NCBI RefSeq assembly: GCF_026626745.1
Contig: NZ_JAPNJW010000001.1
Coordinates: 652,311-716,310 of the forward strand
Direction: 5' to 3'
Length of the DNA: 64,000 bases
From: Nannocystis sp. RBIL2
GTDB taxonomy: Bacteria > Myxococcota_A > Polyangia > Nannocystales > Nannocystaceae
Both the position numbers and the translations under genes were made by a program. The notes beneath the pieces were generated by a model. The model saw nothing but the letters and a program-made list of their open reading frames with translations. It made no database searches and was not told the DNA's origin. Shown here piece after piece: positions 1-59,760 of this stretch. How positions within the stretch are numbered: position 1 is the stretch's first letter; each line of letters starts with the position of its first letter.

Positions 1-657
1 GTTGCTGTTCTTCGCCGCCTGCGCCCCGTCGGCGGTGTAGCACGCCCACTGCATGGGCGGGTCGTGCGACAGCTGCCCGTTGGCGTGCATCATCAGCGCG
101 CACTGCTGGGCCTTGGCGTCGAGCCCCGCGTCGTGCTCGACCGCCGGCAGCCCGGCCAGCCAGCGGTACAGGTTGATCAGCTTGAGCGCGTTGTCGCGGC
201 CCGGCGCGCCAGTGTCGCCCGCCTGACAGCCGGCGACCGCCCCGCTCCATGTCCCTTCGGACATGTCCGTTCGGTCCGCCGTCCAGCGCGCGCACACCTC
301 CGCCGCCGGATCGACCGGCTCGCCGGTCGTGGTGGTGATGTCGCCGGTGGTCGTCGAAGCCGCGCCGGACGTCCCGCTGTCGGTCGGACCTGGCCCCGAG
401 GACACCTCGTCCGGCCCCGTGGTCGTGGTCCCGGCGACGCTCGTGCTCGTCGGCTCCTCCGCGGTCGACGCCTCGCTGGGGCCCGCCGCGCTCGCATCGC
501 TCGTCCCCGGTCCGCTGCTCGCCGCGCTCGCGCCGGCGCTCGTCGCCCCGCTCGCGGTCTCGGGCGCGCCGATGCTCTCGGTCACCTCCGCGACGCCCGA
601 ATAGCAGCCGACGACGAGCATGGACATCGACGCGAGGACGACGCGAAACGGCAGCAT
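1..657 (-). CDS. CAP/SCP (PR-1-like) domain lipoprotein; partial, 3' end lies beyond the window start
   Basis: Manual minus-strand translation gives MLPFRVVLASMSMLVVGCYSG (signal peptide plus lipobox), then a Ser/Thr/Gly/Ala-rich linker, then a CAP-like region (...NALKLINLYRWLAGLPAVEHDAGLDAKAQQCALMMHANGQLSHDPPMQWACY...). The frame is GC3-rich. It runs off the window edge, so it is absent from the ORF track. The antisense plus-strand ORF 64..1026 is an Arg/Ala-rich shadow. Confidence 0.5.
   Translation of the reverse strand, partial: MLPFRVVLASMSMLVVGCYSGVAEVTESIGAPETASGATSAGASAASSGPGTSDASAAGPSEASTAEEPTSTSVAGTTTTGPDEVSSGPGPTDSGTSGAASTTTGDITTTTGEPVDPAAEVCARWTADRTDMSEGTWSGAVAGCQAGDTGAPGRDNALKLINLYRWLAGLPAVEHDAGLDAKAQQCALMMHANGQLSHDPPMQWACYTADGAQAAKNSN
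247..274 (+). repeat. CATGYCC-family repeat, 2 units (CCATGTCCC / GGACATGTCC), inside the CAP lipoprotein CDS
   Basis: Seen in the sequence. Confidence 0.7.
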
Positions 658-907
658 CTCCCCCGAATACGACCCAACCGCGGCGACCGTCAACCCGCGC
701 GCCCAGCGGCTCGCGCCCGCTCGTGGGGTCGACGAGCCGCGACGCGATCGCGCGACCCCGCAGTCATATCCTCGCCTCGGTCGACCCGCGATTGCGACCT
801 GCAGCTCGTTCACCTCGGCTTCGCGTCTGCAGACCGTCGACCCGACAGCGAAGTGTGGACCGACGACGCGCTCCGCAGCGCTCGAGCTCGCGTCGCGCGC
901 CGCGCCG

Positions 908-3232
908 TCAACTCGGCGCCGCGACCTTGCGGCTCTCGGCCACGATCCGCACCAGATCGGCCTCGTCCTCGCACAGCGCCACGATCAGGTCGCCCGGCAC
1001 CAGCGCCTCGTCCGGCCGCGGGTTGACGATCAGCCGCCGCCGCAGCTCCGCGTGCGACGTCCCGCCCGCCGGCGCCTTGCCGCCCGGATCGGCAGCGCGA
1101 TACAGCCCCAGGGGCACCGCGCCGCCGCGGCCTTGCACCTCGAGCAGCGCGCGCCGGGCCTTGCGCCACGGCTGTCCGATGAGCCAGGTCGGCGCCGGCG
1201 CCGTGTAGACCTCGGCGTTGTCGTCGGCGAACGCCACCACGCGGTTGAACAGCTCCGCGAACGCGCGGTCGCGGCACGCCATCACCAGCCAGCGGTGCGC
1301 CAGCGCCTGGCAGTCGACCGGCACCAGCCAGGCCGCGAACGGCGAGAACACCTCCTCGCGCTCCGCCTCCGACGTCTCGACCAGAGTCACCGGCAGCGCC
1401 GGCGCAGTGCGGGCGATCTCCACCGACGTCGCCGCCACCCCGAGCGTCCGCGCCCGCTGACCGCCGCCGATCGGGTCGCGCGCGCACGCCTGATGGACCG
1501 CGCGGGCGATCCGCAGCGGATCGTAGCTGGCCCCCGACCCGTCGCCGTCGCCGAGCACGATCACCCGCGACGCCCGCGGCAGCCGCAGCCCCGCCAGGTC
1601 CTCCGGCACCTCCGGGTTCGAGTGGTGGATCGTCAGCGCCTTGACGCGCGCCAGCTGCAGCCGCACCCGCCGCGGCAGCGCGTCGGACACCACCACGTGC
1701 AGCGGCCGGTGCCGCGTCGGCCCCGGGCTGCGCAGCAGACGGATCAGCGGCAGCATGTCCTCGCGGAAGTTCAGCACCACCAGGTGCTTGTTGAGCCGCC
1801 GCCACAGCCGCGTCTGCTCCTGCGCGAAGATGTTGGTCAGCGTCGCGGTGAACCACGCCAAAAGGCCCAGCCCGAGGATCGTCGCCGCCGCCCCGACCAG
1901 CCGCGCCGTCGGCGTCTTCAGCGTCTCGGTCGTGAAGTTGCCGGTGGCGAACGTGTTCATCTCCCAGAACGAGTCGTTCAGCGTCCGCAGCCTGGCGTTC
2001 GAGTCATGTTCCAAAGACCAGACGATGAACGTCGACAGCGTCACCACGCACGCGAACGCGGCGAACGGCACCAGCGGGTTCGACAGCTGGCTCTCGATGC
2101 CCGCGCCCGGGACCCGCCGCCGCCGCAGCGCCCGGCGCACCAGGTACAGCACCACCCCTAGCGCCGCCGCGAACGCCCCGCCCTGCAGCCACGCCTGCCG
2201 GCGCTCGCTGGTCTCGTGCAGCTCGGCCACCGGGTGGAGCGGGATCGGCTCGCGCTCGGCGAACCCGCGCCACTCCACGCGGACCTTGAGGCTCGCGTAC
2301 TGCTCGTCGCGCGCGAGCTTCTTGAGCCCCTGGACCATCGCCTCGACCGCCAACCGGCGGTCGGCCAAAAAGCCCTCGTCTTCCACCCGCTCGCGCGGCG
2401 TCGCCACCAGCACCACCGAGCTCACGCACACCGTCGGCATGCTGTACTCGAGGCCCGGATACGTCCCGGTCTCGATCGGGCAGATCCGGTAGTACGGGTA
2501 GCCGTCGATCAGGCGGTTCAGCACCGCCTCGGGCAGCGGGTTCAGGGTCGCCAGGCCTGACGCCAGCACGTCGCGGATCTCCGCGTGCCCCGGCTCGGTG
2601 GTCCGCAGCATCGTCAGCAGCTCGCGCCGGCTCATCGCCGCCAGCGCCTCGTCGGCCGTGCCCGTGAACAGCGGCAGCTGCTCCGCAGTGTGACCCGCCG
2701 CGCCGAGGATCACCTTCGCCGTCTCGTAGCTGCCCGAGCCGTCCTTGCCCATGAACAGCGGCTCGCGGCCGATGTCGTCGAACTCCTCGAGGCGCACCGG
2801 CCGGCGCACCAGCACGTGGACCGCCGCGTCGGACACCGCCGCGATCACCCGCAGCTCGGCCTTGTCGGCCTCCTCGGGCGACAGCTTGCACATCCAGCCG
2901 CCCTTCGGGATCCCGCTGTCGCCCGCGTCCGCGTCCGCCTGCCCGGCCTTGAACGCCTCCGCCGCCACGTCGTACTGCACCAGCGCCGCGTCGAGCTCGC
3001 CCGACAGCAGCTTGTGGACGTTCTCGCACGAGCCCTTGGTGGACTCCGGCGCGATCGTCACCCGCCCCTCGCCCTGGACCGCCTCGGCCAGGGCGTGCGC
3101 GGTCACGTCGAACCCGCCCTTCTTCGCCCCCGAGCCGAAGCGGACCACGATCGCCTCGCCCGCCTGCGCCGCACCTGTCTGCAGGAACATGCCCAGGAGG
3201 ACAGGCGCCATCGGCCATGTCCGCGAGGACAT
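908..3232 (-). CDS. TAXI-family TRAP-type substrate-binding domain fused to a 2-TM ion-channel pore and RCK (TrkA-N/TrkA-C) domains
   Basis: ORF 908..3763 trimmed to ATG 3232 (MSSRTWPMAPVLLGMFLQTGAAQA, signal peptide); an alternative ATG lies at 3211. TAXI hallmarks are present (IVVRFGSGAKKGGFDVT...ESTKGSCENVHKLLSGELDAALVQYDVA). Then come TM helices and a pore-like loop (FWEMNTFATGNFTTE), followed by a Rossmann-type RCK (HLVVLNFREDMLPLIRLL) and a TrkA-C-like end (VPGDLIVALCEDEADLVRIV). The N-terminal 177 codons of the ORF are Gly/Arg-rich junk. Confidence 0.65.
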   Translation of the reverse strand: MSSRTWPMAPVLLGMFLQTGAAQAGEAIVVRFGSGAKKGGFDVTAHALAEAVQGEGRVTIAPESTKGSCENVHKLLSGELDAALVQYDVAAEAFKAGQADADAGDSGIPKGGWMCKLSPEEADKAELRVIAAVSDAAVHVLVRRPVRLEEFDDIGREPLFMGKDGSGSYETAKVILGAAGHTAEQLPLFTGTADEALAAMSRRELLTMLRTTEPGHAEIRDVLASGLATLNPLPEAVLNRLIDGYPYYRICPIETGTYPGLEYSMPTVCVSSVVLVATPRERVEDEGFLADRRLAVEAMVQGLKKLARDEQYASLKVRVEWRGFAEREPIPLHPVAELHETSERRQAWLQGGAFAAALGVVLYLVRRALRRRRVPGAGIESQLSNPLVPFAAFACVVTLSTFIVWSLEHDSNARLRTLNDSFWEMNTFATGNFTTETLKTPTARLVGAAATILGLGLLAWFTATLTNIFAQEQTRLWRRLNKHLVVLNFREDMLPLIRLLRSPGPTRHRPLHVVVSDALPRRVRLQLARVKALTIHHSNPEVPEDLAGLRLPRASRVIVLGDGDGSGASYDPLRIARAVHQACARDPIGGGQRARTLGVAATSVEIARTAPALPVTLVETSEAEREEVFSPFAAWLVPVDCQALAHRWLVMACRDRAFAELFNRVVAFADDNAEVYTAPAPTWLIGQPWRKARRALLEVQGRGGAVPLGLYRAADPGGKAPAGGTSHAELRRRLIVNPRPDEALVPGDLIVALCEDEADLVRIVAESRKVAAPS

Positions 3233-3238
3233 GCCCCG
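3186..3238 (+). repeat. CATGYCC-family array, ~4 units at 14-bp period, overlapping the start codon of the TAXI-channel gene
   Basis: AACATGCCC...GCCATGTCC..GGACATGCCCC. Confidence 0.65.
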
Positions 3239-3339
3239 ACGGCCAGCCCACCGCGCGGCCCGTCGCGCCCACGACGAGCTCGCTTTTTCGGCGCGCTCGT
3301 CTGGCGCGGCCGCGCCGTCCTGCCTCCGCTCCCCGCGTC

Positions 3340-5421: not shown

Positions 5422-7304
5422 GTGTCCGAGCGCGACCGCTTCCTCGCCTTCGCCGCCCGGGCCGTGCCAGTCGCGTTCGGCGCCCGGCCGGCGCCCGGCG
5501 AGCTCGCCGCGCACTGGCGGGCCGCGACCCAGGCGATCGGCGCTCGCCTCGTCCTCGCCTGCGCGCGCGAGCGCCTCGTCGAATTCGACCTCCAGGACAT
5601 GTCCCTTCGCACATGTTCCTTGAGCCTCCCGCTGCGGCGGCGCCGGGCCTTCGAGCTGCACGCCGCCGACCTCGACGGCCCCGACCTCCCCGACCTCCCC
5701 GACCTCCTCCCGCGCCTCTTGCCCGCGCTCGCCCCCGCGGCTCGCGCCCGGATCGCGCGCGAGCTCGCCGACAGCCGCTGGAACCTCGCGCTCGCCCGCC
5801 TCGCCGCCGACCTGCGCCATCGGACATGCTCCGAAGGCCAGGCTTGGCCCGCCCCGCTCGACCCCGAGAACCTGGTCGTCGACGGCCACCCGTGGCACCC
5901 GATGAGCAAGACCCGGCTCGGCCTGCGCGCCTGGGAGAACCTGCGCCACGGCCCCGACCTCCTGGCCCAGGCGGCAGTCCACGCCGTCGACGTCGCCGCC
6001 GACCACGCCCAGCTGGCCGAGCCGGCCCTCTACGCCGACCTCGCGCGCGCCCTGTTCCCGGCCCCCCCGCCCGGCCTCGTCCGCCTGCCCGTCCACCCCC
6101 TCCAGCTGCGCCGCCTCCCGCGCCTGCTCGGCCCGCTGTGGGGCCGCGAGGTCCGTCCGGCCGGCCTGCCTCCGCTCCACGCGCGCGCCCTGCTCAGCCT
6201 GCGCACCGTCGCCCTCGTCGCGCCCGCGCTGCACCTCAAGCTCGCCGTCGACATCCACACCACCAGCGCGCGGCGCCAGGTCTCGCCCGCCTCGGTGCAC
6301 AACGGCCCGGCGATCGCCGCCCTCCTGGCCGCGATCCAGGCCGCCGACCCGCAGACCCGCCGCGGCCTGCAGATCCAGCCCGACCTCGCCGCCGCCGGCC
6401 TGCACCCCCGCCACGGCCCCGGCGCCGGCCAGCTCGGCGTCGTCCTCCGCCCCGACCCCGCCGCCCTCGCCCAAGAGCTCCACGCCGACCTCACCGCACC
6501 CGCCGACCCATCCGGCGCGACGCCGACCGCCCCCGGCACCGCGCCTGCCCCTGAGCACCTGTCCTCCGCGACATATCCCTCGGAACATGCCCCCGAGGAC
6601 CTGTCCCGTGCGACATATTTATTAGAGCATGTCCGATCGCGCACCCCGCAGCTGGTCGTCTGCGCCGCCCTCGGCGAGCGCCGGCCTGGGGGCGACCTCT
6701 TGTTGCGCGAGCTCGCCGCCGACTACCCCGGCGATCCGCGCGCGCGCCTCGCGGCCTTCTTCGCCGACTACCTCGACCTCCTCGTCCCCGCGGCCCTGCG
6801 CCTGCTCACCGCCCACGGCGTCGCCCTCGAGGCGCATCTACAAAACACCCTCCTCGTCCACGCCGGGCGCCCCTGCGGCTTCGTCGTCCGCGACCTCGGC
6901 GGAGTGCGGCTCCACCGCGGGCGGCTGGCCGCGGCCGGCCACGCCCCCGCGCTCGCGCCCGACTCCTTCACCTTGACCTCCGACCTCGCCGAGGCTCAGG
7001 GCAAGCTGTTACACACCCTCGTGCACGCCCACCTCGCGGCTGTGATCGGTTGGGTCGACGACGCCGGCGGCCCCGACCCCGACGCCCTGTGGCCCGCGGT
7101 GCGGCGGATCTGCCAGCGCGAGTGGGACCGCTGGGCCACCGATCCGGCGCTCGCGCGCGCGTGCGCCGACGATCGCGCGTTCTTCTTCGCGGCTACCTGC
7201 CGCAGCAAGGCGCTGCTGCGCATGCGCATCGACGAACGCGTCAGCGATTACGCCTATACCGAGGTCGCCAACGCGCTCGCCGAGGGGTACTCTTCCCCCG
7301 CCGC

Positions 7305-7308: not shown

Positions 7309-8237
<929 letters not shown>

Positions 8238-8252
<15 letters not shown>

Positions 8253-8273
8253 ACCCTGTCCCCGGAGACATTG
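8238..8273 (+). repeat. CATGYCC-family array, 3 units, between the prs-like gene and the nadE start
   Basis: GGACATGTCC..CCCTGTCCCC..GAGACATTG; the nadE ATG follows at 8275. Confidence 0.7.
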
Positions 8274-10254: not shown

Positions 10255-10266
10255 GCCTGGCTCTCG

Positions 10267-10358
10267 GGGCATGTCCCCGAGGACATCCCCGACCCGCGCG
10301 CCCCCCGCGATCACGCCTGAGCCTGCCTGGCGTTTGCGACATGTCCGGGAAGACAGCC
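10267..10358 (+). repeat. two CATGYCC-family sub-arrays (10267..10290 and 10337..10358) between nadE and pcm
   Basis: GGGCATGTCCCCGAGGACATCCCC and GCGACATGTCCGGGAAGACAGCC. Confidence 0.7.
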
Positions 10359-15989: not shown

Positions 15990-16085
15990 GCCTGCTGTCG
16001 CTCCGTACCTGTCCCCGAGCACCTGTCCCCGAGCACCTGTCCCCGAGCACCTGTCCCCGAGCACCTGTCCCCGACAACCTGCCCC
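15990..16085 (+). repeat. perfect tandem array (GAGCACCTGTCCCC) x4 plus 2 to 3 degenerate flanking units, in the gcvT-gcvH spacer
   Basis: Four identical 14-mers at 16017..16072; related units at 16005..16016 and 16073..16085. Confidence 0.9.
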
Positions 16086-16096
16086 GAAGTTTCACC

Positions 16097-22154: not shown

Positions 22155-22188
22155 TCCTCGCGCCTCTGCGAGTTACGATCTGGCTTAT

Positions 22189-22243
22189 GCATGGTTGCCA
22201 GGACATGTCCTTGATGACATGTCCTCGCGGCCATGCGAATTCT
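22189..22243 (+). repeat. CATGYCC-family array, 4 units at 14-bp period
   Basis: Cores at 22190/22204/22218/22232 (GCATGG, GGACATGTCC, GACATGTCC, GCCATGCG). Confidence 0.8.
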
Positions 22244-23447: not shown

Positions 23448-23485
23448 CGGAAACCGTCTCGGCCGGGGACAGCCCCCACGGCCCC

Positions 23486-25210: not shown

Positions 25211-25232
25211 CACCTGTCCCTCAGGACATCTC
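25211..25232 (+). repeat. 2 units (CACCTGTCCC / GGACATCTC) next to a lower-GC stretch upstream of the SnoaL gene
   Basis: Seen in the sequence. Confidence 0.5.
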
Positions 25233-25459: not shown

Positions 25460-25864
25460 ATGACGGCACCGACGAACCCGGAGCGTGACCGCGAGGTCGA
25501 CGCGTTCTTGCACCTCCTCGGGCGCGCGCTGGTGGAAGGCGACGCCCTCACGGTGGCGACGCTGTACGAGACCCCGGCCTTCGTGCTGGCGGACTCCGGC
25601 GCGCAGGCCGTCGCCCGGCGCGAGGAGATCGAGCGCTTCTTCGCCGGTGCGCGGGCGCAGTACCTCGAGCGCGGCGTGACGATGACGCGCCCGGAGGTCG
25701 AGTCGCGCGAGTGGGTCGGCGACCGCGTCGTCCTCGTCCGCGTGGCCTGGCCCTACATCGACCGCGACGGCCGCGAGGTCGGCCTCGAGCGCTCGACCTA
25801 CGCCCTCCGCCGCGACGACTCCGGCGCCCTGCGGATCCGCGTGGTCATGGCCCACCGCGACTGA
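25460..25864 (+). CDS. SnoaL-like/NTF2-like domain protein
   Basis: ATG 25460 (MTAPTNPERD), trimmed from ORF 25352. Confidence 0.5.
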   Translation: MTAPTNPERDREVDAFLHLLGRALVEGDALTVATLYETPAFVLADSGAQAVARREEIERFFAGARAQYLERGVTMTRPEVESREWVGDRVVLVRVAWPYIDRDGREVGLERSTYALRRDDSGALRIRVVMAHRD

Positions 25865-26369
25865 CCTGTCCCCGAGGACATCCATCGCCGGACCCGTCGG
25901 GCGTGAACTTTCCCCACGAATAATCCGGGTGGTCCACCGCGATCATGGTCCACGCTTCCACGCCGGTGTCCTCGTCGACCTCGAACAGCAGGCGGGCGCC
26001 GCCTGGGATCGCCAGCATGCGGCGCTTCTCGCGGTCGCGTCCGGTGATGAAGGGCACCTGCTCGGCGTTGAGCCGCTCGACGACGTCGTCGTAATCGGGC
26101 GCCTCCGAGTCGCCGAGGATCCACGCGTCGATCTCGCGCTCCCCATCCGCTTCGAGCTGGATCAGATAATCGTGATAGAGCGTGTAGACGAGGTCCCCGT
26201 CGAGGAACAGCTCGAAGTTGCCGTAGCGCCAGACCTCGGTGCCGCCGCCGCTGGCCATACGCTCGCTGGGCGGGCCCAGCCGCTCGAGGACGATGTCGCG
26301 GGTGTCGCCGGGTCGCACGCCGCCGAGCTGACCTTCGACCACGAGGCTGCGGATCGAGAACGCGATCAT
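25845..26369 (-). CDS. hypothetical protein
   Basis: Diverse composition (MIAFSIRSLVVEGQLGG...). The C-terminal ~20 codons read through a repeat unit (25863..25883). Confidence 0.5.
   Translation of the reverse strand: MIAFSIRSLVVEGQLGGVRPGDTRDIVLERLGPPSERMASGGGTEVWRYGNFELFLDGDLVYTLYHDYLIQLEADGEREIDAWILGDSEAPDYDDVVERLNAEQVPFITGRDREKRRMLAIPGGARLLFEVDEDTGVEAWTMIAVDHPDYSWGKFTPDGSGDGCPRGQVSRGGP
25863..25883 (+). repeat. 2 units (GACCTGTCCCC / GAGGACATCC) at a convergent gene junction
   Basis: Seen in the sequence. Confidence 0.55.
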
Positions 26370-26940: not shown

Positions 26941-26987
26941 CCCGCCCAGAGTACCTCACCGGCGGCCGCCCGTCACCGGTCCCTCGG

Positions 26988-27050
26988 ACCATGCCCTCTC
27001 GGCCATGTCCTGGCAGACATGTCCCCGACGACATGTCGCCGAGGCCATCC
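26988..27050 (+). repeat. CATGYCC-family array, 5 units at exact 14-bp period
   Basis: CAT at 26990/27004/27018/27032/27046. Confidence 0.85.
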
Positions 27051-36822: not shown

Positions 36823-37119
36823 GCGTGGCCTCCTCCCCGGCCGCCTCGCGCTCGCGCCTCGCCCCGCGACGTCGCCAGCGCCTCGGCGAAAGCTATCGAG
36901 GCTCTCCACGCGTGCCAGTCCGCCCTCGCCGCCTCACGACCGGCGGACGACCCGCCGGCGCCTCGGCCCCGACATCGACCCACTTCCTCCCCGGCTCGCG
37001 CGCACGCGTCTGCCCGCGAGGCCCCGGCGCTCGGCCCCACGCCGCACTGAGCGGCCCGCGCCGCCCCGCCGTCGAGCGGCCCCGCGCCCGCGGTGCACCG
37101 ATGATGCGTCATCCTCTCG

Positions 37120-37180
37120 ACATGCCGTTCAGGACATGTCCCTATTCACAGGTCTATTCGGACATGTCACCCGACCATCC
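37120..37180 (+). repeat. CATGYCC-family array, 5 units at 14-bp period, between divergent genes
   Basis: CAT at 37121/37135/(CAC 37149)/37163/37176. Confidence 0.85.
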
Positions 37181-41102: not shown

Positions 41103-41186
41103 AGGACATGTCCTCATGGACATGCCCCCGAGGGCATGCCCGTACGAACATGCCCATGAGGCCATGTCCCTCAGGACACCTCACAG
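41103..41186 (+). repeat. CATGYCC-family array, 6 units at exact 14-bp period, between convergent genes
   Basis: CAT at 41107/41121/41135/41149/41163 and CAC at 41177. Confidence 0.9.
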
Positions 41187-43967: not shown

Positions 43968-43988
43968 GCGCTCGCACGAGCTGCCCTG

Positions 43989-44029
43989 AAAGACATGTCG
44001 CCCGGGCCATGCCCTGGCGACATGTCTTT
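43989..44029 (+). repeat. perfect 14-bp inverted repeat AAAGACATGTCGCC...GGCGACATGTCTTT flanking GGGCCATGCCCT (3 units at 14-bp period)
   Basis: Seen in the sequence. Confidence 0.85.
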
Positions 44030-44140
44030 TTAAAGGGCCGCATCTCGGACCGCGCCCCGTCGGCCCATCTCCGCGAGATCCTCCGCCCCGATCGCAACGC
44101 CCGCCGTCGGCCGGTCGCCGCAAGATCGCGCTCGCTCTTG

Positions 44141-44224
44141 CGAGCATGCCCCTCACGCCATGCCCCTCGTGCCATGTCCCTCGCGCCATGTCCCCGAGGA
44201 CATGCCCCGATCGACATGCCCTTC
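44141..44224 (+). repeat. CATGYCC-family array, 6 units at exact 14-bp period, between convergent genes
   Basis: CAT at 44145/44159/44173/44187/44201/44215. Confidence 0.9.
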
Positions 44225-44233
44225 AGGCCAGCC

Positions 44234-47434: not shown

Positions 47435-47460
47435 GCCCTGTCCTTCGGGACAGGCTCTTG
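47435..47460 (+). terminator. stem-loop downstream of rplC (CCCTGTCC-TTCG-GGACAGG), weak T tail
   Basis: Inverted repeat seen directly in the sequence, though without a strong U-tract. The stem is itself a CTGTCC/GGACAG repeat-family unit. Confidence 0.35.
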
Positions 47461-51417: not shown

Positions 51418-51443
51418 GCCGACGTCGAGCCTCGCCTGCGACG

Positions 51444-51488
51444 AAGCGCGGCCCCTTTGAAAAAGGGGGTCGCGCTTTTTCTTTGCGA
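51444..51488 (+). terminator. rho-independent terminator after typA
   Basis: GCGCGGCCCCTTTG-AAAA-AGGGGGTCGCGC stem-loop followed by TTTTTCTTT. Confidence 0.6.
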
Positions 51489-51803: not shown

Positions 51804-53150
51804 ATGTTCGCTTCGAACCCGTTCGCGCCGCGCCGTCGCTCGCAAGGCACGGGTCGAAGCCTGGTGCTCCTCCTCGTCCTCCTCGCGGCCTGCCGACGCA
51901 GCACCGAGACCACGGCTCCTGCCAGCGTCGACGCCCCGCAGGACAAGCCGACGAGCGAGCTGCGGCGGACCTACGACCTCCCGCCCGCCGACGCCCCCTG
52001 GACCGCGCAGGACTATCAAAAAGTCCGCGACGCCTTCGTCCGCCTCGAGCGCGAGCGCCCCGAGCTGCTGCCGCGGCTCGACGGACCCGACGGCGAATGG
52101 CTCCGGCGCCTCGTCGCCCTCGACGGCATCGAGGCCGCCGTCCGGAGCACCACCGGCCCCGACGAGCTCACCGCATTGCACCTGGCCCTCGCCGACATCC
52201 TTCAGCTCTACGCCGCCCGGGCCCTCACGCGCGGCGAATACGGACACGAGTACCTCGCCGTCGCCGCGGCCTTTTTCAAAGAGTCCGCCCTTCGCATCGA
52301 CCGGCTCACAAGTGACGACGCCTCTCGCCGCACCTTCGTCGAGGCCCGCTTTCACCTCGCGCGCGGCGTCCACGACGTCCTCGCCAGCGCCCTCTCCCTC
52401 CCGGACACCATCGATCCCGCTGTCGCGGTCGCCACCTTCGGCCCGCTCGGCGACCTCCTCGCTCCGTGGTTCCTCCCCGAGGAGCGCGACCGGATCCTCG
52501 ACCTCGCCGATCGCCTCGCCGCAGTCGACGTCCCCCCCGCCGAGCTCGCCGCCCTGCGCACCGCCTTCGCCCCCGATCGCGAGCCCCACCCGCGCGTCGA
52601 CGCGCTCGCCGAAGAGCTCCGCGAGCACCTCGAGCAGCAGGAGGCCGTGCTCGCCGCGGTCGCGGCCGGGGCGCTCCAGCCGGTCGAGGTCGGGCGCGAG
52701 GGCTCGCAGGTCCGCTGGGCCTTCCCCGACGTCGGCTTCTCTGCCGTCTTCCCCCGGCGGCCCAACGCGCAGCGCCAGAGCTTCACCACCGCCGACGGCG
52801 TGGCCATGACCACCCGCATGCTCGCGCTCAAGCAGCCCGGCGACCTCTCGCGGCTCGTCACCTGCAGCGCGCGCGCCAGGCCGATCGCCGGCCGCACGCC
52901 CGCCGACGAGCTGCGCGGGATCGCCGACACCATGCGCCTCCAGGGCGTGCGTGCGCTCGACGTCGAGGGCACCGCCGGCCTCGAGGGCACCCTCACCACC
53001 GACAATGCCCACGGCCTCGTCCGCGTCGTCACCGTCGCCGACGCCACCTGCGTGATCGTCGGCGAAGTCCCGCGAGCGCAGGCCCGCGAGCGCGCCGACG
53101 AGCTGCGCCGCTTCGTCGATTCGTTCCGCCCGGTCTCCAGCGGCCGCTGA
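51804..53150 (+). CDS. hypothetical lipoprotein
   Basis: MFASNPFAPRRRSQGTGRSLVLLLVLLAACR lipobox. Trimmed from the 991-aa ORF 50175..53150, whose N-terminus is junk. Confidence 0.55.
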   Translation: MFASNPFAPRRRSQGTGRSLVLLLVLLAACRRSTETTAPASVDAPQDKPTSELRRTYDLPPADAPWTAQDYQKVRDAFVRLERERPELLPRLDGPDGEWLRRLVALDGIEAAVRSTTGPDELTALHLALADILQLYAARALTRGEYGHEYLAVAAAFFKESALRIDRLTSDDASRRTFVEARFHLARGVHDVLASALSLPDTIDPAVAVATFGPLGDLLAPWFLPEERDRILDLADRLAAVDVPPAELAALRTAFAPDREPHPRVDALAEELREHLEQQEAVLAAVAAGALQPVEVGREGSQVRWAFPDVGFSAVFPRRPNAQRQSFTTADGVAMTTRMLALKQPGDLSRLVTCSARARPIAGRTPADELRGIADTMRLQGVRALDVEGTAGLEGTLTTDNAHGLVRVVTVADATCVIVGEVPRAQARERADELRRFVDSFRPVSSGR

Positions 53151-53173
53151 CTGGCCCCGCCCCTCCGCTCGAG

Positions 53174-53243
53174 CTTGTCCTCGGGGACATGCCCGATCGA
53201 GCATGTCCATGAGACCATGTTCGAGAGGACATGCCCGCCATCG
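53174..53243 (+). repeat. CATGYCC-family array, 5 units at 14-bp period
   Basis: TTG 53174, then CAT at 53188/53202/53216/53230. Confidence 0.85.
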
Positions 53244-53381
53244 CCGTGCTTCGCAGCGCAGGCCCCGAAGATTCGACGCGTCAACGTCCCTCGCTCGAGC
53301 CACCCCGCCGTCCACGCGTGGACGCCTGCGTATGGCGGCCTCCAGACCTCCGCGCCATTCACGCATCCCTCACATTTAATT

Positions 53382-53410
53382 TTGACAGCGCAGTCAAGAA
53401 CGCTTAGCTT
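53382..53410 (+). promoter_or_regulatory. TTGACA-N17-TAGCTT promoter that contains the palindrome TTGACagcgcaGTCAA (candidate TetR operator); it would give a leaderless tetR mRNA
   Basis: Seen in the sequence. The -35 hexamer is part of a 5-bp-arm inverted repeat. The ATG of the TetR gene lies 8 nt after the -10. Confidence 0.45.
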
Positions 53411-53417
53411 TCCAGCC

Positions 53418-54020
53418 ATGCCCCGGCCACGCGAGTTCGATCGAGACGAGGCCATCGAGCGGGCCATGGCCGTGTTCTGGGAGCACGGCTTCGACGGCAC
53501 CTCGACCGAGCAGCTCCTCCAGGCCATGGGGATCGGGCGCCAGAGCATGTACGCCGCCTTCGGCGACAAGCACGGCCTCTACCTCGCCGCGCTGGAGCGC
53601 TACCAGGCGCGTCAGGGCGCCGACCTGCTGGAGCGGCTACGAGCCGTCGCCTCGCCGCTGGGCGCGATCGAGGACATCCTGCTCGGCGTGGCCGGAGACA
53701 CCGCCGAGGGGCGGTCGCGCGGCTGTTTCGGCATCCAGTCGATCATCGAGATGGCCGGGCGCGACCCCGAGGTCGTGACCCTGGCCCGCAGCGCCACCGC
53801 CCTGTGCGAGGCCGCCTTCGAGCGCATGGTCGCCGAGGCCAAGCGCCGCGGCGAGGTCGGCGCGCACGTCGACGAGCGCAGCGCCGGCCGCTTCCTCCTC
53901 TCCACCCTGCAAGGCCTGCGGGTCAGCGCCCGCACGGGCGCCGCGCCCGAGGCCCTGCGGGCCGTCGCCGGCTTCGCCATCGCCGCCCTCCGGGCCGCGC
54001 CGCCCTCCACCAGTTCTTGA
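53418..54020 (+). CDS. TetR/AcrR-family transcriptional regulator
   Basis: N-terminal HTH (TSTEQLLQAMGIGRQSMYAAFGDKHGLYL). Trimmed from ORF 53175. Confidence 0.8.
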   Translation: MPRPREFDRDEAIERAMAVFWEHGFDGTSTEQLLQAMGIGRQSMYAAFGDKHGLYLAALERYQARQGADLLERLRAVASPLGAIEDILLGVAGDTAEGRSRGCFGIQSIIEMAGRDPEVVTLARSATALCEAAFERMVAEAKRRGEVGAHVDERSAGRFLLSTLQGLRVSARTGAAPEALRAVAGFAIAALRAAPPSTSS

Positions 54021-54043
54021 CTACATAGTCCACAACCTATCGC

Positions 54044-54216
54044 CCCTGGCAACCTGCGACGCACCGCGTGAGCGGCCGTCGTCGACTGCACCGTTCCCAA
54101 CTCACCGCTCGTGACAGCCCGCGACGCACCGCACGAGCGGCCGTCGTCGACCGCATCGTCCACAACCCATCGTGACAGTCCGCGACGCGCCGCCCGGGGC
54201 GGCCGTCGTCGACAGG
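54044..54216 (+). repeat. three direct ~46-bp repeats (core GCGACGCRCCGCNNGRGCGGCCGTCGTCGAC) with ~61-66 bp period between tetR and the AKR gene
   Basis: Seen in the sequence at 54044..54089, 54110..54155 and 54171..54216. Confidence 0.6.
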
Positions 54217-54227
54217 AGTGATTCGCC

Positions 54228-55313
54228 ATGTCTCTCGATCAGTACTACCTGCTCGGCCGCTCCGGCCTGCGGGTCAGCCCGTTCGCGCTCGGCACCTTGA
54301 CCTTCGGCACCGACGGCCCGTACGGCGCCTGGGGCTCGAGCAAGCAGGCCGCGCGCGCCGTGTTCGACCGCTACCTCGCGGCCGGCGGCAACTTCATCGA
54401 CACCGCCGACCTGTACACCCGCGGCACCAGCGAGTCGCTGCTGGGCGAGTTCATCGCCGACGGCAACCGCGATCGCCTCGTGCTCACCAGCAAGTACAGC
54501 TACAACCTCGCCGAGCGCGACCCCAACGCCGGCGGCAACGGCCGCAAGAACATGATCCGCGCGCTCGAGGCCTCGCTGAAGCGCCTGCGGACCGACTACC
54601 TCGATCTCTACCTGCTCCACACCTGGGACCGGATCACCCCCGCCGAGGAGGTCGTGCGCGCCTTCGACGACCTCGTGCGCGCCGGCAAGATCCGCTACGC
54701 CGGCCTGTCCGACGTCCCCGCCTGGTACGCCGCGCGGGCCCATACCTACGCCGAGGCTCATGCCCTCGCGCCGATCGTCAACCTGCAGCTGCAGTACTCG
54801 CTGGTCGAGCGCGGCATCGAGGCCGAGTTCACCTCGCTCGCCACCAACCTCGGCATGGGCATCACCGCCTGGAGTCCGCTCGCCAGCGGCCTCCTGTCGG
54901 GCAAGTACCGCCCCAACAGCGACGGCGGCAGCGGCAGGCTCAGCACCGGCACTGGCAAGTCGCTCAGCCTCTTCACCGAGCGCAACTGGCAGATCGTCGG
55001 CGCGCTCGAGGCAGTCGCCGGCGAGCTCGGGCGCAGCATGGCCCAGGTCGCGCTGCAGTGGGTGCTCACGCGTCCGGGCGTCACCTCGGTGATCCTCGGC
55101 GCCACGCGGCCGGAGCAGCTCGAGGACAACCTCGGCGCGCTCGACCTCCAGATCCCGCCCGAGCTCCTGCGTCGCCTCGACGAGGCCAGCGCGCCGCCCG
55201 TCACCACCCCGTACGCGATGTTCGGCGACCGCTACCAGGCCGCGGTGCACGGCGCCGCAGTCAGCGATCGCCCGCCCGCCTTTGCCCCGCCGGTCCGCGT
55301 CAGCCTCGGGTGA
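54228..55313 (+). CDS. aldo/keto reductase family oxidoreductase
   Basis: SD AGGAGTG. AKR motifs are present (LGTLTFG, NFIDTADLY, LDLYLLHTWD). Confidence 0.85.
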   Translation: MSLDQYYLLGRSGLRVSPFALGTLTFGTDGPYGAWGSSKQAARAVFDRYLAAGGNFIDTADLYTRGTSESLLGEFIADGNRDRLVLTSKYSYNLAERDPNAGGNGRKNMIRALEASLKRLRTDYLDLYLLHTWDRITPAEEVVRAFDDLVRAGKIRYAGLSDVPAWYAARAHTYAEAHALAPIVNLQLQYSLVERGIEAEFTSLATNLGMGITAWSPLASGLLSGKYRPNSDGGSGRLSTGTGKSLSLFTERNWQIVGALEAVAGELGRSMAQVALQWVLTRPGVTSVILGATRPEQLEDNLGALDLQIPPELLRRLDEASAPPVTTPYAMFGDRYQAAVHGAAVSDRPPAFAPPVRVSLG

Positions 55314-55503
55314 AATCATTCGTGTCGGTCGAGGTGGGCCGTCGCCGCGGAACGTCGATTACCGCGGCGCACGGCCGTCGCCCGCGACCCGGGCGAGCCG
55401 CCGACGGGCACGACGAACCACCACGAATCGCACCGGTTCGCGGCGTCATCGATCGCCGCGCGGAATCGTCGCCCCGTGCACCGACGTGGTACCTCTCGTC
55501 GCC

Positions 55504-56004
55504 ATGGGATTCTTCGACAAGGCCAAGCAGTTCCTCGGCGGCAAGAACATGGCGAGCGTCGCCATCACCGTCATCGAGCGTCAACCGGCGGAGACCGCCA
55601 CCTTCCCGGTCACCGACTCGGTCCTCAAGGGCACGATGGTGATCACCGCGCAGCAGGAGTGCACCTTGCTGGCGACCAAGTACGAGGTGTGGCTGTACAT
55701 CAAGAAGGACGACATCGACTCGCCGAACCTCGCCCGCGCCGAGAAGGATCCCGATCCGAACGTCAGCTACTCGGACAGCTGCCTCAAGATGCCCTGCGAC
55801 CTCAAGCCCGGGCAGGTCATCACCCAGCCGTGGCTGGTGAGCGAGGTCGACCTCGCCGGCATCCTCGCGCGCAACGGCTTCCCCGATCCGAACGCCGCCA
55901 CGCGTGATCCGCGGGTGCGGCTCGTCGTCAAATGCATCGCCGACGTCAAGGGCTCGCCCTTCGATCCGAGCGCAGAGGTCACCGTCCGCCTCGCGCCGAC
56001 CTGA
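55504..56004 (+). CDS. hypothetical protein
   Basis: MGFFDKAKQFLGG..., diverse composition. Trimmed from ORF 55282. Confidence 0.5.
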   Translation: MGFFDKAKQFLGGKNMASVAITVIERQPAETATFPVTDSVLKGTMVITAQQECTLLATKYEVWLYIKKDDIDSPNLARAEKDPDPNVSYSDSCLKMPCDLKPGQVITQPWLVSEVDLAGILARNGFPDPNAATRDPRVRLVVKCIADVKGSPFDPSAEVTVRLAPT

Positions 56005-56072
56005 ATCGCGCGCGCCGGCACATGGGCCGCGCGCGCCCCTGCGCGCCGGCCCGTGGCACATTCGCCGGCACG

Positions 56073-56678
56073 ATGAACATCGACCTCGCCAAATTTTTGT
56101 CCGTCGCCGCCCTCATGAGCCAGGGCGTCGCCACAGCCGGCTGCACGATCAACCTCGGCGGTCTCTCCGATACCAACATCGGCCCCGAGACGACCACGAC
56201 CGAGAGCACCGCCGGCACCACGGACGACACGACCAGCACCGGCACGGCGGGCGAGACGACCGACGGCACCGACACCGGCACCAGCGCGCCGACGACCACC
56301 GAAACCCCGACCAGCACCACCGAGGCCACCGCGGGCACCACCGAGGCCACCGCGGGCACCACCGGCGAGGGCTTCGTCTGCAGCGACGGTACCGCACTCG
56401 AGAACCCGGCGTGGGTCTGCGACGAGAACCCCGACTGTCCTGACGGCTCCGACGAGGTCAGCGGCTGCGGCCTCGAGGCCTTCACCTGCACCGACAAGAA
56501 GGAGATCCCCGCGACCTGGGCCTGCGACGAGGTCCCCGACTGCCTCGACAACTCCGACGAGGTCACCGGCTGCGGCCTCGAGGCCTTCCTCTGCACCAAC
56601 GGCACCGAGATCCCGGCGACCTGGAAGTGCGACATGGCCGACGACTGCCCCGACGGCGCCGACGAGGCCGACTGCTGA
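56073..56678 (+). CDS. lipoprotein with three LDL-receptor class A (LDLa) repeats
   Basis: Lipobox (ATAGC) and a Thr-rich linker, followed by 3 LDLa-like units (C.DG..IP..W.CD...DC.DGSDE). Confidence 0.65.
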   Translation: MNIDLAKFLSVAALMSQGVATAGCTINLGGLSDTNIGPETTTTESTAGTTDDTTSTGTAGETTDGTDTGTSAPTTTETPTSTTEATAGTTEATAGTTGEGFVCSDGTALENPAWVCDENPDCPDGSDEVSGCGLEAFTCTDKKEIPATWACDEVPDCLDNSDEVTGCGLEAFLCTNGTEIPATWKCDMADDCPDGADEADC

Positions 56679-56688
56679 GATGATTGTA

Positions 56689-56782
56689 TGGACATGCCCG
56701 AAAGGGCATGTCACCCGCGCGGCCGCCCCCGGCGACCTGAAAATCCACATGACCTCTCGGTCATGTCCCTTCAGGCACATGC
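56689..56782 (+). repeat. two hairpin-forming sub-arrays: GGACATGCCC-GAAA-GGGCATGTCA (56689..56713) and ACATGACC-TCTC-GGTCATGT (56747..56766), plus a further unit
   Basis: Perfect 10-bp and 8-bp stems seen in the sequence, lying between convergent genes. Confidence 0.85.
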
Positions 56783-57963: not shown

Positions 57964-58135
57964 CGACTCCGCCCACGGAGCCGCCGCCGGCACCGGCCGC
58001 GAGACGCTCGTCACCCGGCGAGCATACCCGGACCGCCGACGCTCGTCTCGCGCGAGGCCCGAGCGCAGCGCTCGCACGCAGCGGCATCACCCGCGTGCGC
58101 GGCCACGACCCAGCTCCCGGGCGCTTCAGCGGCGT

Positions 58136-58219
58136 CCAACATGCCCATTCGAGCATGCTCTATTAAACATGCCCCGGCAGACATGCCCTTCCGAGCATGC
58201 CCGATCGTTCATGTTGCCG
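58136..58219 (+). repeat. CATGYCC-family array, 6 units at exact 14-bp period (includes the AT-rich unit CTCTATTAAACATGCCCC), between trpF and the Mur ligase gene
   Basis: CAT at 58140/58154/58168/58182/58196/58210. Confidence 0.9.
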
Positions 58220-58838: not shown

Positions 58839-58891
58839 GCGGGTACCGACCTGTCCTTCTCGCCCTGTCCAGAAGAACATGTCCCCGAAGC
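58832..58891 (+). repeat. CATGYCC/CTGTCC-family array, 4 units, overlapping the trpF start
   Basis: Cores at 58836/58851/58865/58878. Confidence 0.7.
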
Positions 58892-58944
58892 CAGGCGCTG
58901 CGCGCCCTCGCCTCGCCTCGCCGCACCGCGTCTGAAGGCCAGCC

Positions 58945-59751
58945 TCACAGCGCCATCACCAGGTCGCGCAGCGCCTCGCCCGGCTGGTCGGCGGTCATGA
59001 AGTAGCTGCCGATCAGCAGCGCGTCGGCCCCCGAGTCGCGCAGGCGGAGCGCGTCGTCGATGGTCCGGACCCCGCTCTCGGCCACGTACGTGAAGCTCTT
59101 GGGCACGTACTTGCGCAGCTTGGCCGCGCGGTCGGGGTCGAGCTCGAACGTCTGCAGGTCGCGCGAGTTGACCCCGATCAGCTTCGCCCCGGCTGCCATG
59201 GCGCGATCGATCTCCGCCTCGTCGCGGGTCTCGCACAGCACCTGCATCTCGAGCGTGTGGGAGAACTCGATCAGGTTGCGCAGCTGCGGCGCCGGCAGGG
59301 CGGCGACGATCAGCAGCACGCAGTCGGCCCCGACCCGCTTGGCCTCGACGATCTGGGTCTTCTCGAGGATGAAGTCCTTGGCCAGGAGCGGCAGCGCCAC
59401 GCTCTGGCGCACCGTCCGGAGGTCTTCGAGCGAGCCCTGGAAGTGCCGGTCGCACAGCACGCTCATGCAGGTCGCGCCGCCGGCCGCGTAGAGCATCGCG
59501 ATCTGGCGCGCGTCGGCGCCTTCGCGCAGGACGCCGGCGCTGGGCGACGCGCGCTTGAACTCGGCGATGATCCCCGGGCGCGGGCCCTCGCGCAGCGCGC
59601 CGATGAAGTCGCGCGGGCGCGGGAGGCGGGCGCCGAGCTCGATCAGCTCGCGGTCGGTCAGCGCTCCCGAGCGGGTCGCCCGGGGGGCGGCGAGCTCGGC
59701 CCGCTTGGCGGCCAGGATCTTGTCGAGGTACGTGCTGCCTTTGTCGCTCAT
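58945..59751 (-). CDS. trpC: indole-3-glycerol phosphate synthase
   Basis: ILAAKRAEL... and EFKRASPS motifs. Confidence 0.85.
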   Translation of the reverse strand: MSDKGSTYLDKILAAKRAELAAPRATRSGALTDRELIELGARLPRPRDFIGALREGPRPGIIAEFKRASPSAGVLREGADARQIAMLYAAGGATCMSVLCDRHFQGSLEDLRTVRQSVALPLLAKDFILEKTQIVEAKRVGADCVLLIVAALPAPQLRNLIEFSHTLEMQVLCETRDEAEIDRAMAAGAKLIGVNSRDLQTFELDPDRAAKLRKYVPKSFTYVAESGVRTIDDALRLRDSGADALLIGSYFMTADQPGEALRDLVMAL

Positions 59752-59760
59752 GTCCTGCCC

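Follow-up and report, generated by a model that had tools for sequence, protein, structure and literature searches.

Strictly phased 14-bp palindromes at gene 3' ends in Nannocystis and their possible role as transcript-end hairpins

Short extragenic palindromes of very high copy number are known from enterobacteria and pseudomonads as REP, BIME and REPIN elements, and the arrays found in Nannocystis resemble them in several respects: both often form regularly spaced clusters, can fold into hairpins, are specific to a species or genus, lie in the transcribed 3' regions of convergent and tandem genes and are occasionally inserted in frame within genes. However, the Nannocystis unit measures 14 bp, with 5- to 7-bp arms (20-40 nt in REP), carries neither the GT[AG]G (GTAG) nor the CGTC tag of REP elements, and abuts its neighbor at an exact 14-bp phase, whereas REP and BIME alternate in orientation with defined linkers; its loops show no constraint, and identical copies are hardly in excess. 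Inverted DUS pairs, which form terminators in Neisseria, are likewise built from a consensus-driven genome-wide motif of ~10 bp that makes post-gene hairpins, but they are not known to form phased multi-unit arrays, and Nannocystis gives no evidence of uptake specificity. Ribbon-helix-helix operator arrays (MetJ met-boxes with an 8-bp period, omega heptads with 7 bp) and the ParR centromere repeats are read cooperatively by dimers. They share with the Nannocystis arrays short dyad or direct repeats abutting at a fixed period, yet they are found at a handful of promoters or on plasmids rather than at the 3' ends of thousands of genes. Hairpin terminators of the non-canonical kind in GC-rich bacteria (tandem, or lacking a U-tract) are similar in their post-stop position, strong hairpins and weak or absent U-tract; ordinary terminators, however, have idiosyncratic sequences, while a single dyad consensus is reused everywhere in Nannocystis. 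Mycobacterial MIRU and intergenic minisatellites (VNTR) are also intergenic tandem repeats of strain-variable copy number, but MIRU units are 40-100 bp long, operon-oriented and not dyad-symmetric.

Anatomy and statistics of the element

An earlier note on the window (the whole stretch of 64,000 nucleotides analyzed here) had described CATG-centered units at 25 or more loci. All of the arrays that it located were recovered in place, and our own definition gives 28 loci plus a CCTG variant array at 16007-16087. The repeats themselves are real, and their register is better captured by a 14-bp dyad, TGYCC-N4-GGRCA, with a free 4-bp center and head-to-tail repetition, in which CATG is the junction of two adjoining elements. 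CATGYCC occurs 79 times in the window (16.9 +/- 4.6 expected), the dyad 65 times (9.8 +/- 3.3 expected from shuffles) and the two-unit pattern CATGYCC-N7-CATGYC 24 times (0.00 expected in shuffles). The 14-bp phase was likewise confirmed: it accounts for 31 of the 255 CATG-to-CATG gaps in the window and for 185 of 189 intervals (98%) between neighboring good units in ~395 kb of Nannocystis DNA. Within GGR-NNNN-YCC the core is CATG in 90 cases and the second most frequent 4-mer accounts for 10, and the Y of one arm is independent of the R in its partner (TA 42, TG 31, CA 26, CG 20). Arrays end in half-units, have a geometric size distribution and are poorer in gaps than other intergenic DNA.

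Identical 14-mers common to different loci numbered 5 (2.2 +/- 1.4 by chance). Among 116 element loops, CCGA/TCGG was found in 11, where about 1.5 are expected by our own estimate from column frequencies, and loops reading GNRA or UUCG on at least one strand in 22, where the same kind of estimate gives ~13%; no clear enrichment of stable tetraloops was found among these loops. The commonest flank pair other than CA..TG on both sides is CC..GG (7 against about 3 expected, our own estimate from marginal frequencies), and there is a modest excess of isolated elements bearing a complementary extension (CCTGTCC...GGACAGG). A Nannocystis genome holds roughly two to three thousand arrays. The data support a family of dispersed, REP/BIME-like extragenic palindromes with an unusually strict 14-bp phase, in keeping with the resemblance suggested before. 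It appears to be new, as a search of a limited literature collection yielded no description of the family and an Rfam search of the element returned no match. The strict phase, the unique preference for CATG and the absence of coupling between Y in one arm and R in the other fit a sequence-reading protein, a possibility already raised, and the strict 14-bp spacing hints at such a putative partner. The likeness of the core to a p53 half-site is a coincidence of the consensus.

Arrays at gene ends, their folding and their turnover

The following features were located in the window (strand given where one was assigned).

3185..3245, three CATG units and a decayed unit, overlapping the 5' end of an NMT1_3-like gene on the - strand
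6556..6643, + strand, six in-phase units (84 bp, 28 codons) in frame in a siderophore-synthetase gene
8238..8270, perfect GGACATGTCC at the end of a PRPP-synthetase-like gene, then TGTCC-CCGG-AGACA just ahead of the nadE start
10258..10290, abutting elements TGGCT-CTCG-GGGCA then TGTCC-CCGA-GGACA, beginning 4 nt past the nadE stop
10337-10355, further unit near the preceding pair
16007..16087, + strand, variant array (ACCTGTCCCCGAGC) x 5.9, between gcvT and gcvH
22187..22238, four-unit array 32 nt past the stop of a cytochrome c peroxidase-like gene (+ strand), fold z -7.2
25212..25230, isolated CCTGTCC-CTCA-GGACAT, then a T-rich tail
25864..25882, isolated CCTGTCC-CCGA-GGACAT, at the stop of gene 25460-25864
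26987..27049, four units and a half-unit, 20 nt past the stop of a PmbA/TldD-like gene (- strand), fold z -2.2
37118..37169, three CATG units and one decayed, in a long non-coding stretch upstream of a histidine kinase gene
41104..41178, five CATG units and a terminal half-unit, filling the 79-bp spacer between the convergent stops of genes 40484-41101 (+) and 41181-41672 (-)
43986..44034, + strand, long terminator-like hairpin with CATG in its arms, then TTTTT, at gene 43266-43967
44142..44230, six-unit array 12 nt from the stop of - strand gene 44234-45037
47436..47455, isolated element without CATG, CCTGTCC-TTCG-GGACAGG, beginning 17 nt past a stop codon
48148..48213, four units with one decayed in-phase unit mid-array, between an FtsJ-like gene (stop 48136) and a convergent small - strand ORF (stop 48227), fold z -5.7 and -3.9
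53176..53236, one leading element and four units, 26-38 nt past the stop of gene 51864-53150
56690..56713, two-unit perfect hairpin GGACATGCCC-GAAA-GGGCATGTC, 11 nt past the stop of gene 56022-56678
56736..56775, second hairpin CCTGAA...CATGACC-TCTC-GGTCATG...TTCAGG, at the stop of a Mur-ligase-like gene (- strand)
58137..58219, six-unit array overlapping the trpF stop codon, nested hairpin, z -6.8
59746..59755, single unit in the 9-bp trpD-trpC gap, its CAT being the trpC start codon (- strand)

The arrays had been taken to occur in every gene context alike, and hence not to be simply terminators. Placement is in fact far from indifferent: arrays of at least three units comprise 57 intergenic cases (30 convergent, 25 tandem and 2 divergent) and 6 intragenic ones, whereas intergenic length predicts 8.9 convergent, 29.3 tandem and 18.8 divergent (chi-square p = 5e-15). 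Divergent spacers make up the largest share of intergenic DNA, yet only 2 of the 57 lie there. The stop-to-array distance is at most 40 nt in 60 of 122 cases, the arrays sitting 2-40 nt past stop codons, and nearly all distances to the next start exceed 100 nt. The argument against terminators is not supported: the arrays are strongly linked to gene 3' ends. In the window, the array at 22187..22238 has its next start 114 nt away, that at 53176..53236 lies ~180 nt ahead of a TetR-family gene start, that at 58137..58219 is placed between trpF and the Mur-ligase-like gene (both - strand), and the hairpins 56690..56713 and 56736..56775 share one convergent spacer. The array at 37118..37169 (fold z -2.2), whose region showed no coding signal, is the window's one divergent case.

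Of 36 array folds compared with shuffles, covering both strands, 34 reached z values from -2.0 to -7.5. The array at 41104..41178 folds with z -4.8 on the + strand and -5.8 on the - strand, and that at 44142..44230, whose left halves are strongly degenerate, with -4.8 on the - and -2.0 on the + strand. The two hairpins named previously, 56689..56713 and 43989..44029, are indeed strong (z -4.5 and -7.5), the latter reaching -41.6 kcal/mol over 43986..44034 as a canonical-looking predicted terminator for gene 43266-43967. Most arrays have no U-tract, and the window holds few canonical hairpin-plus-T terminators. According to PMC3993855, intrinsic termination by mycobacterial RNA polymerase depends on a U-tract.

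Comparison with N. pusilla genomes (95-97% identity to the window), N. exedens and N. punicea revealed arrays at matching 3' ends that differ in unit number and spacers, and all six comparable positions were retained in every strain or species covering them. Location, core and phase thus persist, whereas spacer sequences and unit counts turn over, the unit content being hypervariable between strains of ~95-97% identity; between-strain divergence was 3.7% in CATG, 34% in spacers and 11% in other intergenic DNA. The ortholog of 41104..41178 in another strain has four units with different spacers, and the trpF array, found in six related contigs, varies in unit number and sequence, so that copy number does vary at orthologous loci. 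Among three strains, the array at 53176..53236 is more conserved than its flanks and does not overlap the TetR promoter/operator, which is itself conserved. The family is confined to Nannocystis: a relative with 80% TatD identity had only one small array in 20 kb, none was found in Pseudenhygromyxa, and the FtsJ 3' end in Pseudenhygromyxa and another relative carries an ordinary GC hairpin in place of the array.

A strand bias had been claimed for nearly all clearly oriented units and linked to chromosome organization. The tendency exists (CATGYCC, 56 on the + strand and 23 on the - strand in the window) but does not extend to nearly all units, and it tracks local GC skew irrespective of gene direction; a role in chromosome organization read from it is not supported. 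Across loci, array orientation agrees with local skew in 34 cases and disagrees in 11. Degenerate positions carry the substitutions predicted by skew, G changing to A or C on the C-rich strand, with no effect of the sense transcript on mismatch types. The per-position odds ratio, from a sample biased towards asymmetry, is 2.35 (CI 1.67-3.32), where intergenic composition by itself predicts 1.67. The bias is largely a by-product of the strong genomic GC skew, composition explaining most of it.

Possible explanations for the arrays

Tentatively, we favor the reading that the arrays are Nannocystis-specific, REP/BIME-like 3'-end elements acting at the RNA level as transcript-end hairpins. An array would form the transcribed tail of the gene upstream of it, or of both genes if these converge, and would fold in either orientation into one long nested hairpin or a hairpin stack because every element is complementary to every other. 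As most arrays lack a U-tract, they would mainly supply a stable fold to define and protect the 3' end of the transcript once termination has occurred, and not so much act as canonical intrinsic terminators. Units would be gained and lost in 14-bp steps by replication slippage, for which the unit numbers at gcvT-gcvH and trpF speak, and replication-linked mutational skew would erode the G-rich arm on the C-rich strand, giving the apparent strand bias. This reading is consistent with the 3'-end location and its conservation, folding on both strands, the scarcity of canonical terminators, the GC hairpins at the FtsJ 3' end of relatives, the CCTGTCC...GGACAGG excess, the low divergence of CATG relative to other intergenic DNA and the one array that outconserves its flanks. 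On the other hand, pairing alone explains neither the unique CATG core nor a near-absolute phase amid scrambled spacers; the arms vary independently, mismatches follow GC skew and not the sense transcript, stable tetraloops are not clearly enriched, the U-tract requirement reported for mycobacteria argues against it, and arrays occur where a terminator would be harmful (gcvT-gcvH and in-frame coding sequence), both of them decayed.

Several of these difficulties favor a close, if somewhat doubtful, rival, in which a putative Nannocystis-specific dimeric protein would bind each 14-bp dyad in double-stranded DNA (5-bp arms, free 4-bp center) and polymerize along abutting sites, each rotated by ~120 degrees relative to the one before, to mark or insulate transcription-unit ends as a read-through roadblock, a topological barrier or a nucleoid-associated protein, the hairpin potential being a by-product of dyad symmetry. 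The half-units at array edges are expected of a dyad operator, and the unconstrained loops, the rarity of gaps and the persistence of location, core and phase across species also suit it. However, no candidate protein was found, the number of arrays per genome is far above that of an ordinary regulator, hugging stop codons is no known habit of bacterial operators, and the hypervariable unit content also weighs against it. The quick unit turnover at fixed sites, geometric array sizes, strain-variable copy number, confinement to one genus and presence in a protein linker would instead suit selfish or neutral repeats, an unlikely origin, propagated or renewed by a dedicated enzyme such as a RAYT-like single-strand transposase, or simply through slippage and template switching that hairpins promote; templated correction would keep stems alike while loops mutate fast, and 3' ends would accumulate copies because insertions are tolerated there. 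The CCGA/TCGG excess hints at a master copy, yet identical 14-mers hardly exceed chance, the REP tags are lacking, 14 bp is far below the size of any known mobile unit, the proximity to stop codons goes beyond mere promoter avoidance, and all six comparable positions were kept. It is very improbable that the arrays are DNA-uptake signals like Neisseria DUS or Haemophilus USS, enriched by biased uptake and recombination and secondarily paired as terminators: the motif is consensus-driven rather than copied, genus-specific and present in thousands of tolerated places, protein linkers included, but strictly phased tandem arrays are not known for such signals, the units occur in clumps instead of being spread evenly, and evidence of sequence-specific uptake is lacking in Nannocystis. 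A product of chance from base composition or codon usage has virtually no probability. It accounts for some single intragenic units, which read GAC-ATG-TCC (Asp-Met-Ser) or Met-Ser/Met-Pro starts; for the arrays it is already refuted by the shuffles and by recurrence at orthologous sites of other strains and species.

Units were also said to lie in frame within genes, which holds for the array at 6556-6643 (cores CCTG, CATA, CATG, CCTG, CATA, CATG, in order), located in the linker that joins the IucA_IucC and FhuF domains and containing TTA TTA codons; its 14-residue motif (EDMS...GHA/EHV) is shared by orthologs with as little as 65% identity, and the N. pusilla group carries it in duplicate. 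Some other matches within genes, among them 5598/5612 (encoding DMSLRTCS), are conserved protein sequence. The 36-bp repeat at 24271-24507 was rejected as a member array, being a coding 12-residue repeat. The gcvT-gcvH array, in which the CATG core is changed to CCTG, does not fold (z +0.96) and has four units in N. pusilla Na p29 and six in the window, so that slippage by 14-bp steps is visible there. Single units supply or adjoin start codons, as had been noticed, for example at trpC (59749), where the overlap may be incidental. The array at 3185..3245 is nearly identical, spacers included, in three species, and the called start codon lies in its last unit, which fits coding constraint. The position of 10258..10290 is also occupied in N. 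exedens, N. punicea and N. pusilla.

Anatomy and phase of the element

The arrays, 14-bp-phased runs of units with a CATG core, occur in the window far beyond chance: CATGYCC is found 79 times, compared with 16.9 ± 4.6 in shuffled sequence, and the two-unit pattern CATGYCC-N7-CATGYC 24 times, compared with 0.00 in 100 dinucleotide shuffles. All of the arrays quoted in the earlier note were recovered at their positions. Of the 255 gaps between successive CATGs in the window, 31 measure exactly 14 bp. In ~395 kb of Nannocystis DNA, the step from one good unit to the next is exactly 14 bp in 185 of 189 cases (13 bp in two, 15 bp in none), and the number of in-phase pairs declines geometrically (185, 95, 48, 18, 4, 1). 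By our own definition the window holds 28 loci, plus a variant array between gcvT and gcvH (16007-16087) in which the CATG core is changed to CCTG. Arrays comprise two to seven units, each 14-bp period including a 4-bp variable part, and units are clumped in arrays and not evenly spread.

A weight matrix built from 51 in-array units reads GGA-CATG-YCC, followed by four nearly free positions. The centre of GGR-NNNN-YCC decamers is CATG 90 times, with CAGG (10) and CCTG (9) as runners-up; the palindromic centres favoured by composition, CGCG and CCGG, occur six and seven times, respectively. Array edges are half-units: the in-phase 4-mer past the left end is xxTG in 37 cases and CAxx in nine, and that past the right end is CAxx in 42 and xxTG in eight. 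The half-unit ends imply that the repeat is better written as a 14-bp dyad, TGYCC-N4-GGRCA, arranged head-to-tail with CATG as the junction. With at most one mismatch, this dyad occurs 65 times in the window versus 9.8 ± 3.3 in shuffles. Isolated copies lacking CATG exist (for example, CCTGTCC-TTCG-GGACAGG at 47436), and the central four bases are diverse, with no marked preference for stable tetraloops among the 4-nt centres. In loci retrieved by way of their proteins, arrays of at least two units number 1.8-2.7 per 10 kb, which extrapolates to ~2-3 thousand arrays in a 12-Mb genome. CATG is found 9.6 times per kb of intergenic DNA versus 3.1 times per kb of coding DNA. A 44-bp spacer between two minus-strand genes (11875-11918), with 48% G+C versus 72% for the genome, contains one CATG unit.

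Placement at gene ends and folding

Genes in the window and in 34 Nannocystis loci were called with our own codon-usage caller. Among arrays of at least three units, 30 were located between convergent genes, 25 between tandem genes, two between divergent genes and six within genes, whereas intergenic length predicts 8.9 convergent, 29.3 tandem and 18.8 divergent (chi-square p = 5e-15). This split contradicts the earlier claim that arrays are used alike in all gene contexts. The gene ends facing arrays are stop codons in 122 cases and start codons in 49; the distance from stop to array is at most 40 nt in 60 of the 122, and that from array to start almost always exceeds 100 nt. Four of the five convergent spacers of the window hold an array, and by our own count ~40% of its spacer-followed gene ends have a dyad after them.

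Arrays and matches within genes of the window:
6556-6643: 84-bp array of six in-phase units (28 codons, TTA TTA among them) in the IucA_IucC-FhuF interdomain linker
5598/5612: in-gene match, in conserved protein sequence
3185-3245: in-gene array, in a coding N-terminus

Three units of the 6556-6643 array encode a 14-residue motif, which orthologs with as little as 65% identity share and which the N. pusilla group carries in duplicate; because orthologs at 65% identity already hold the motif, they offer no empty site for comparison with this array. A 36-bp repeat (24271-24507; 5.6 copies) was considered as a member array and rejected, since it is a coding repeat that encodes MSRETASLPPAG units, although every copy contains the dyad TGTCC-CGAG-AGACA with one mismatch. 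The MSRETASLPPAG repeats sit downstream of the N-terminal region in a single ORF (23444-24979), and by our own reading this region looks like an ECF sigma factor.

When folded as RNA, 34 of 36 arrays or strands were more stable than dinucleotide shuffles (z -2.0 to -7.5, on both strands); the two that were not are the CCTG variant array (z +0.96) and a single strand of an asymmetric array. The 14-bp element has 5-bp arms and a 4-nt centre, two abutting units yield a 24-nt hairpin, and arrays often form a single long nested hairpin in which the first unit is paired to the last. Neighbouring units displayed no compensatory pairing beyond the marginals (0.41 observed versus 0.40 expected, 155 pairs), and a weak compensatory signal was limited to the CC..GG flanks of isolated elements. 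A wobble test for pairing of the sense-strand RNA gave no sign of it, as G.U-compatible and C.A mismatches tracked GC skew and not gene direction.

Arrays share with canonical terminators a GC-rich hairpin shortly past the stop codon, but a clear T run accompanies CATG-type elements only at 43986-44034; an isolated element at 25212-25230 has a T-rich tail. Arrays were absent from the matches of a hairpin-plus-T scan of the window, in which such terminators are scarce. The sole textbook intrinsic terminator of the window (51443-51478; 16-bp stem, GAAA loop and T run) follows bipA. To our knowledge, myxobacteria with very GC-rich genomes of 12-13 Mb have few canonical terminators. The 3' end of the FtsJ-like gene carries an array in N. 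pusilla versus ordinary GC hairpins in Pseudenhygromyxa and another relative. Intrinsic termination in mycobacteria requires U-tracts, according to one study (PMC3993855).

Strand asymmetry and turnover

The window has a G+C content of 72.5% and a negative GC skew in every 2-kb bin (-0.04 to -0.22; mean -0.12), regardless of gene direction, and its gene content is that of an ordinary chromosome (nadE, gcvT/gcvH, bipA, the trp operon and a hybrid histidine kinase). An identical copy of its TrpC is encoded by three ~12-Mb genomes, to which the window DNA shows 94-97% identity across most aligned stretches and 89-93% in three; the closest of these, in a pattern scan of species-representative genomes, is Nannocystis pusilla Na p29. 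In 34 arrays the asymmetry between the arms matches the local GC skew in sign, and in 11 it opposes it (p = 0.0008); the agreement is present for both gene orientations, and eight of ten pattern matches in Na p29 carry the local skew sign. Degenerate positions change from G to A and from G to C on the C-rich strand, whichever strand is transcribed. The between-arm odds ratio per position is 2.35 (CI 1.67-3.32) versus 1.67 expected from intergenic composition, in a sample biased to asymmetry through the search pattern. The strand bias reported in the earlier note thus exists as an asymmetry, but as a tendency that follows GC skew, with composition accounting for most of it; we conclude that the bias is real but largely an effect of strong replication-linked skew on a palindrome. 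The lesson is that GC skew acting upon a palindrome can generate a striking strand bias. The skew sign switches along the chromosomes of N. pusilla Na p29 and N. punicea, as for two replichores. By skew sign the plus strand of the window is C-rich (lagging), yet it carries ~36 of the 57 called genes.

The scan of species-representative genomes found the family abundant in N. pusilla, N. exedens, N. punicea, N. bainbridge and N. radixulma; a relative with 80% TatD identity has a single two-unit array in 20 kb, and Pseudenhygromyxa has none. The same 3' ends are occupied across strains and species, with varying unit counts and spacers. Copy-number variation at orthologous arrays, a point raised in the earlier note, was observed: the CCTG variant array has four units in Na p29 versus six in the window, which shows that unit number changes by slippage in 14-bp steps.

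Mismatch rates of the window against five related loci (~95-97% identity)
CATG: 3.7%
Flanking arm bases: 18.7%
Spacers: 34% (partly inflated, because unit gain and loss aligns non-orthologous units in register)
Other intergenic DNA: 11%
Coding DNA: 3.3%

The array at 53176-53236 is better conserved than its own flanks. Recent copy-and-paste was rejected, as identical 14-mers are scarcely common to different loci. The nadE-pcm spacer in N. exedens and N. punicea (comparison loci L125, 14750-15250, and L126, 14780-15240) has expanded from ~200 to ~460-500 bp through duplicated blocks of ~70-110 bp, each with a two-unit element. N. pusilla Na p29 harbors an extra block (comparison locus L001, 13200-17500, versus window 54000-56700), missing from the window and two other strains, which encodes a TPR protein, a Ser/Thr kinase and an ECF sigma factor; the synteny break adjoins an array.

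Known repeat classes and candidate roles

The arrays, at an extrapolated ~2-3 thousand, share with REP/BIME elements a high extragenic copy number (>100 per genome). A REP/BIME unit is a stem-loop made by an imperfect palindrome of 20-40 nt; the present element measures 14 bp, and two abutting units yield a 24-nt hairpin. The defining mark of REP sequences, according to two reports, is a GT[AG]G (or CGTC) tetranucleotide at the hairpin foot (PMC3733652, PMC6006769). Of 102 arrays, 2-3% had GTAG/CTAC no more than 25 nt away, compared with 13% of random 90-nt windows, and the CGTC tag was likewise depleted near arrays. REP/BIME repeats also flank a cognate RAYT gene, which encodes a Y1 transposase; no transposase-like proteins were found among 30 window proteins scanned against Pfam, and the DNA analysed covers ~4% of any one Nannocystis genome. 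The many identical or near-identical copies typical of REP/BIME are also lacking, with five repeated identical 14-mers versus 2.2 ± 1.4 expected from independent columns. The missing GTAG tag and the missing identical copies exclude the arrays from the REP family proper. CRISPR arrays, with 23-55-bp repeats, unique spacers of similar size and usually cas genes, were rejected on the 14-bp period, the 4-bp variable part, the two to seven units per array and the thousands of loci. MITEs, which span 50-500 bp, have inverted repeats at their termini and show target-site duplication, were rejected likewise, as no unit exceeds 14 bp and arrays change in whole 14-bp steps. DUS/USS are competence-recognised motifs that are fairly evenly spread, including in genes, unlike the clumped units described here.

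No match came from Rfam (gathering thresholds) or from a tRNA scan, a viral-contig scan with a stringent palindromic pattern gave 0 matches, and a literature search for the family found no description, the sole matches for GGACATGTCC concerning p53. Matches in other phyla (cyanobacteria, Bacteroidales, Gemmatimonadota and others) were rejected as family members; for the most part they are plain (CATGCCC)n heptamers or 14-mers repeated perfectly in tandem. The tandem heptamers, with AATGCCC and TATGCCC variants, occur in many filamentous cyanobacteria (L012, L013, L016, L020, L022, L049, L087), and (CATGCCC)n also in Vicinamibacterales, Gemmatimonadota, Bacteroidales and Victivallales MAGs (L017, L060, L094, L110). 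They are distinct from three cyanobacterial STRR heptamers.

Position, folding and the presence of arrays where orthologous sites carry ordinary hairpins favour a putative REP/BIME-like 3'-end element. An array may act as the hairpin tail of transcripts and, because U-tracts are absent, would more likely be an end-defining, protecting structure than a true intrinsic terminator. Only slightly less probable than such a hairpin is a candidate dimeric DNA-binding protein that reads abutting 14-bp operators, which fits several features that pairing alone does not account for: the unique CATG core, the exact 14-bp phase in 98% of cases, the independent choice of Y and R in the two arms, the mismatches without sense-strand effect and the half-unit array edges. 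It is possible, though less likely than not, that arrays are phased landing pads for a putative Nannocystis-specific protein polymerising in 14-bp steps at transcription-unit ends, with hairpin potential secondary; this would amount to dedicated bacterial marking or insulation of gene ends, for instance through termination at a roadblock or through a barrier to supercoils where genes converge. The third option is an origin as selfish elements or through slippage.

The arrays are apparently undescribed, and their strict phase is the unexplained and most interesting feature; any protein that read it would represent a new type of genome-wide boundary factor. One reusable 14-bp dyad would offer a concrete, testable handle on the poorly known ending of transcripts in myxobacteria. 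Arrays differ in copy number between close strains, which makes them potential typing markers. Nannocystis is a natural-product producer, and arrays are possible ready-made 3'-end parts for its engineering.

A gene at 56022-56678 of the window encodes three repeats of the LDL-receptor class A domain, which is characteristic of animals; they are made up of a 105-bp tandem repeat (56412-56667). The block TCACATTTAATTTTGACAGCGCAGTCAAGAACGCTTAGC, upstream of a TetR-family gene (~53370-53410), is one base from identity in two related strains and contains a TTGACA hexamer within the palindrome TTGACAGCGCAGTCAA; it is probably the promoter and operator of the TetR-family gene itself.
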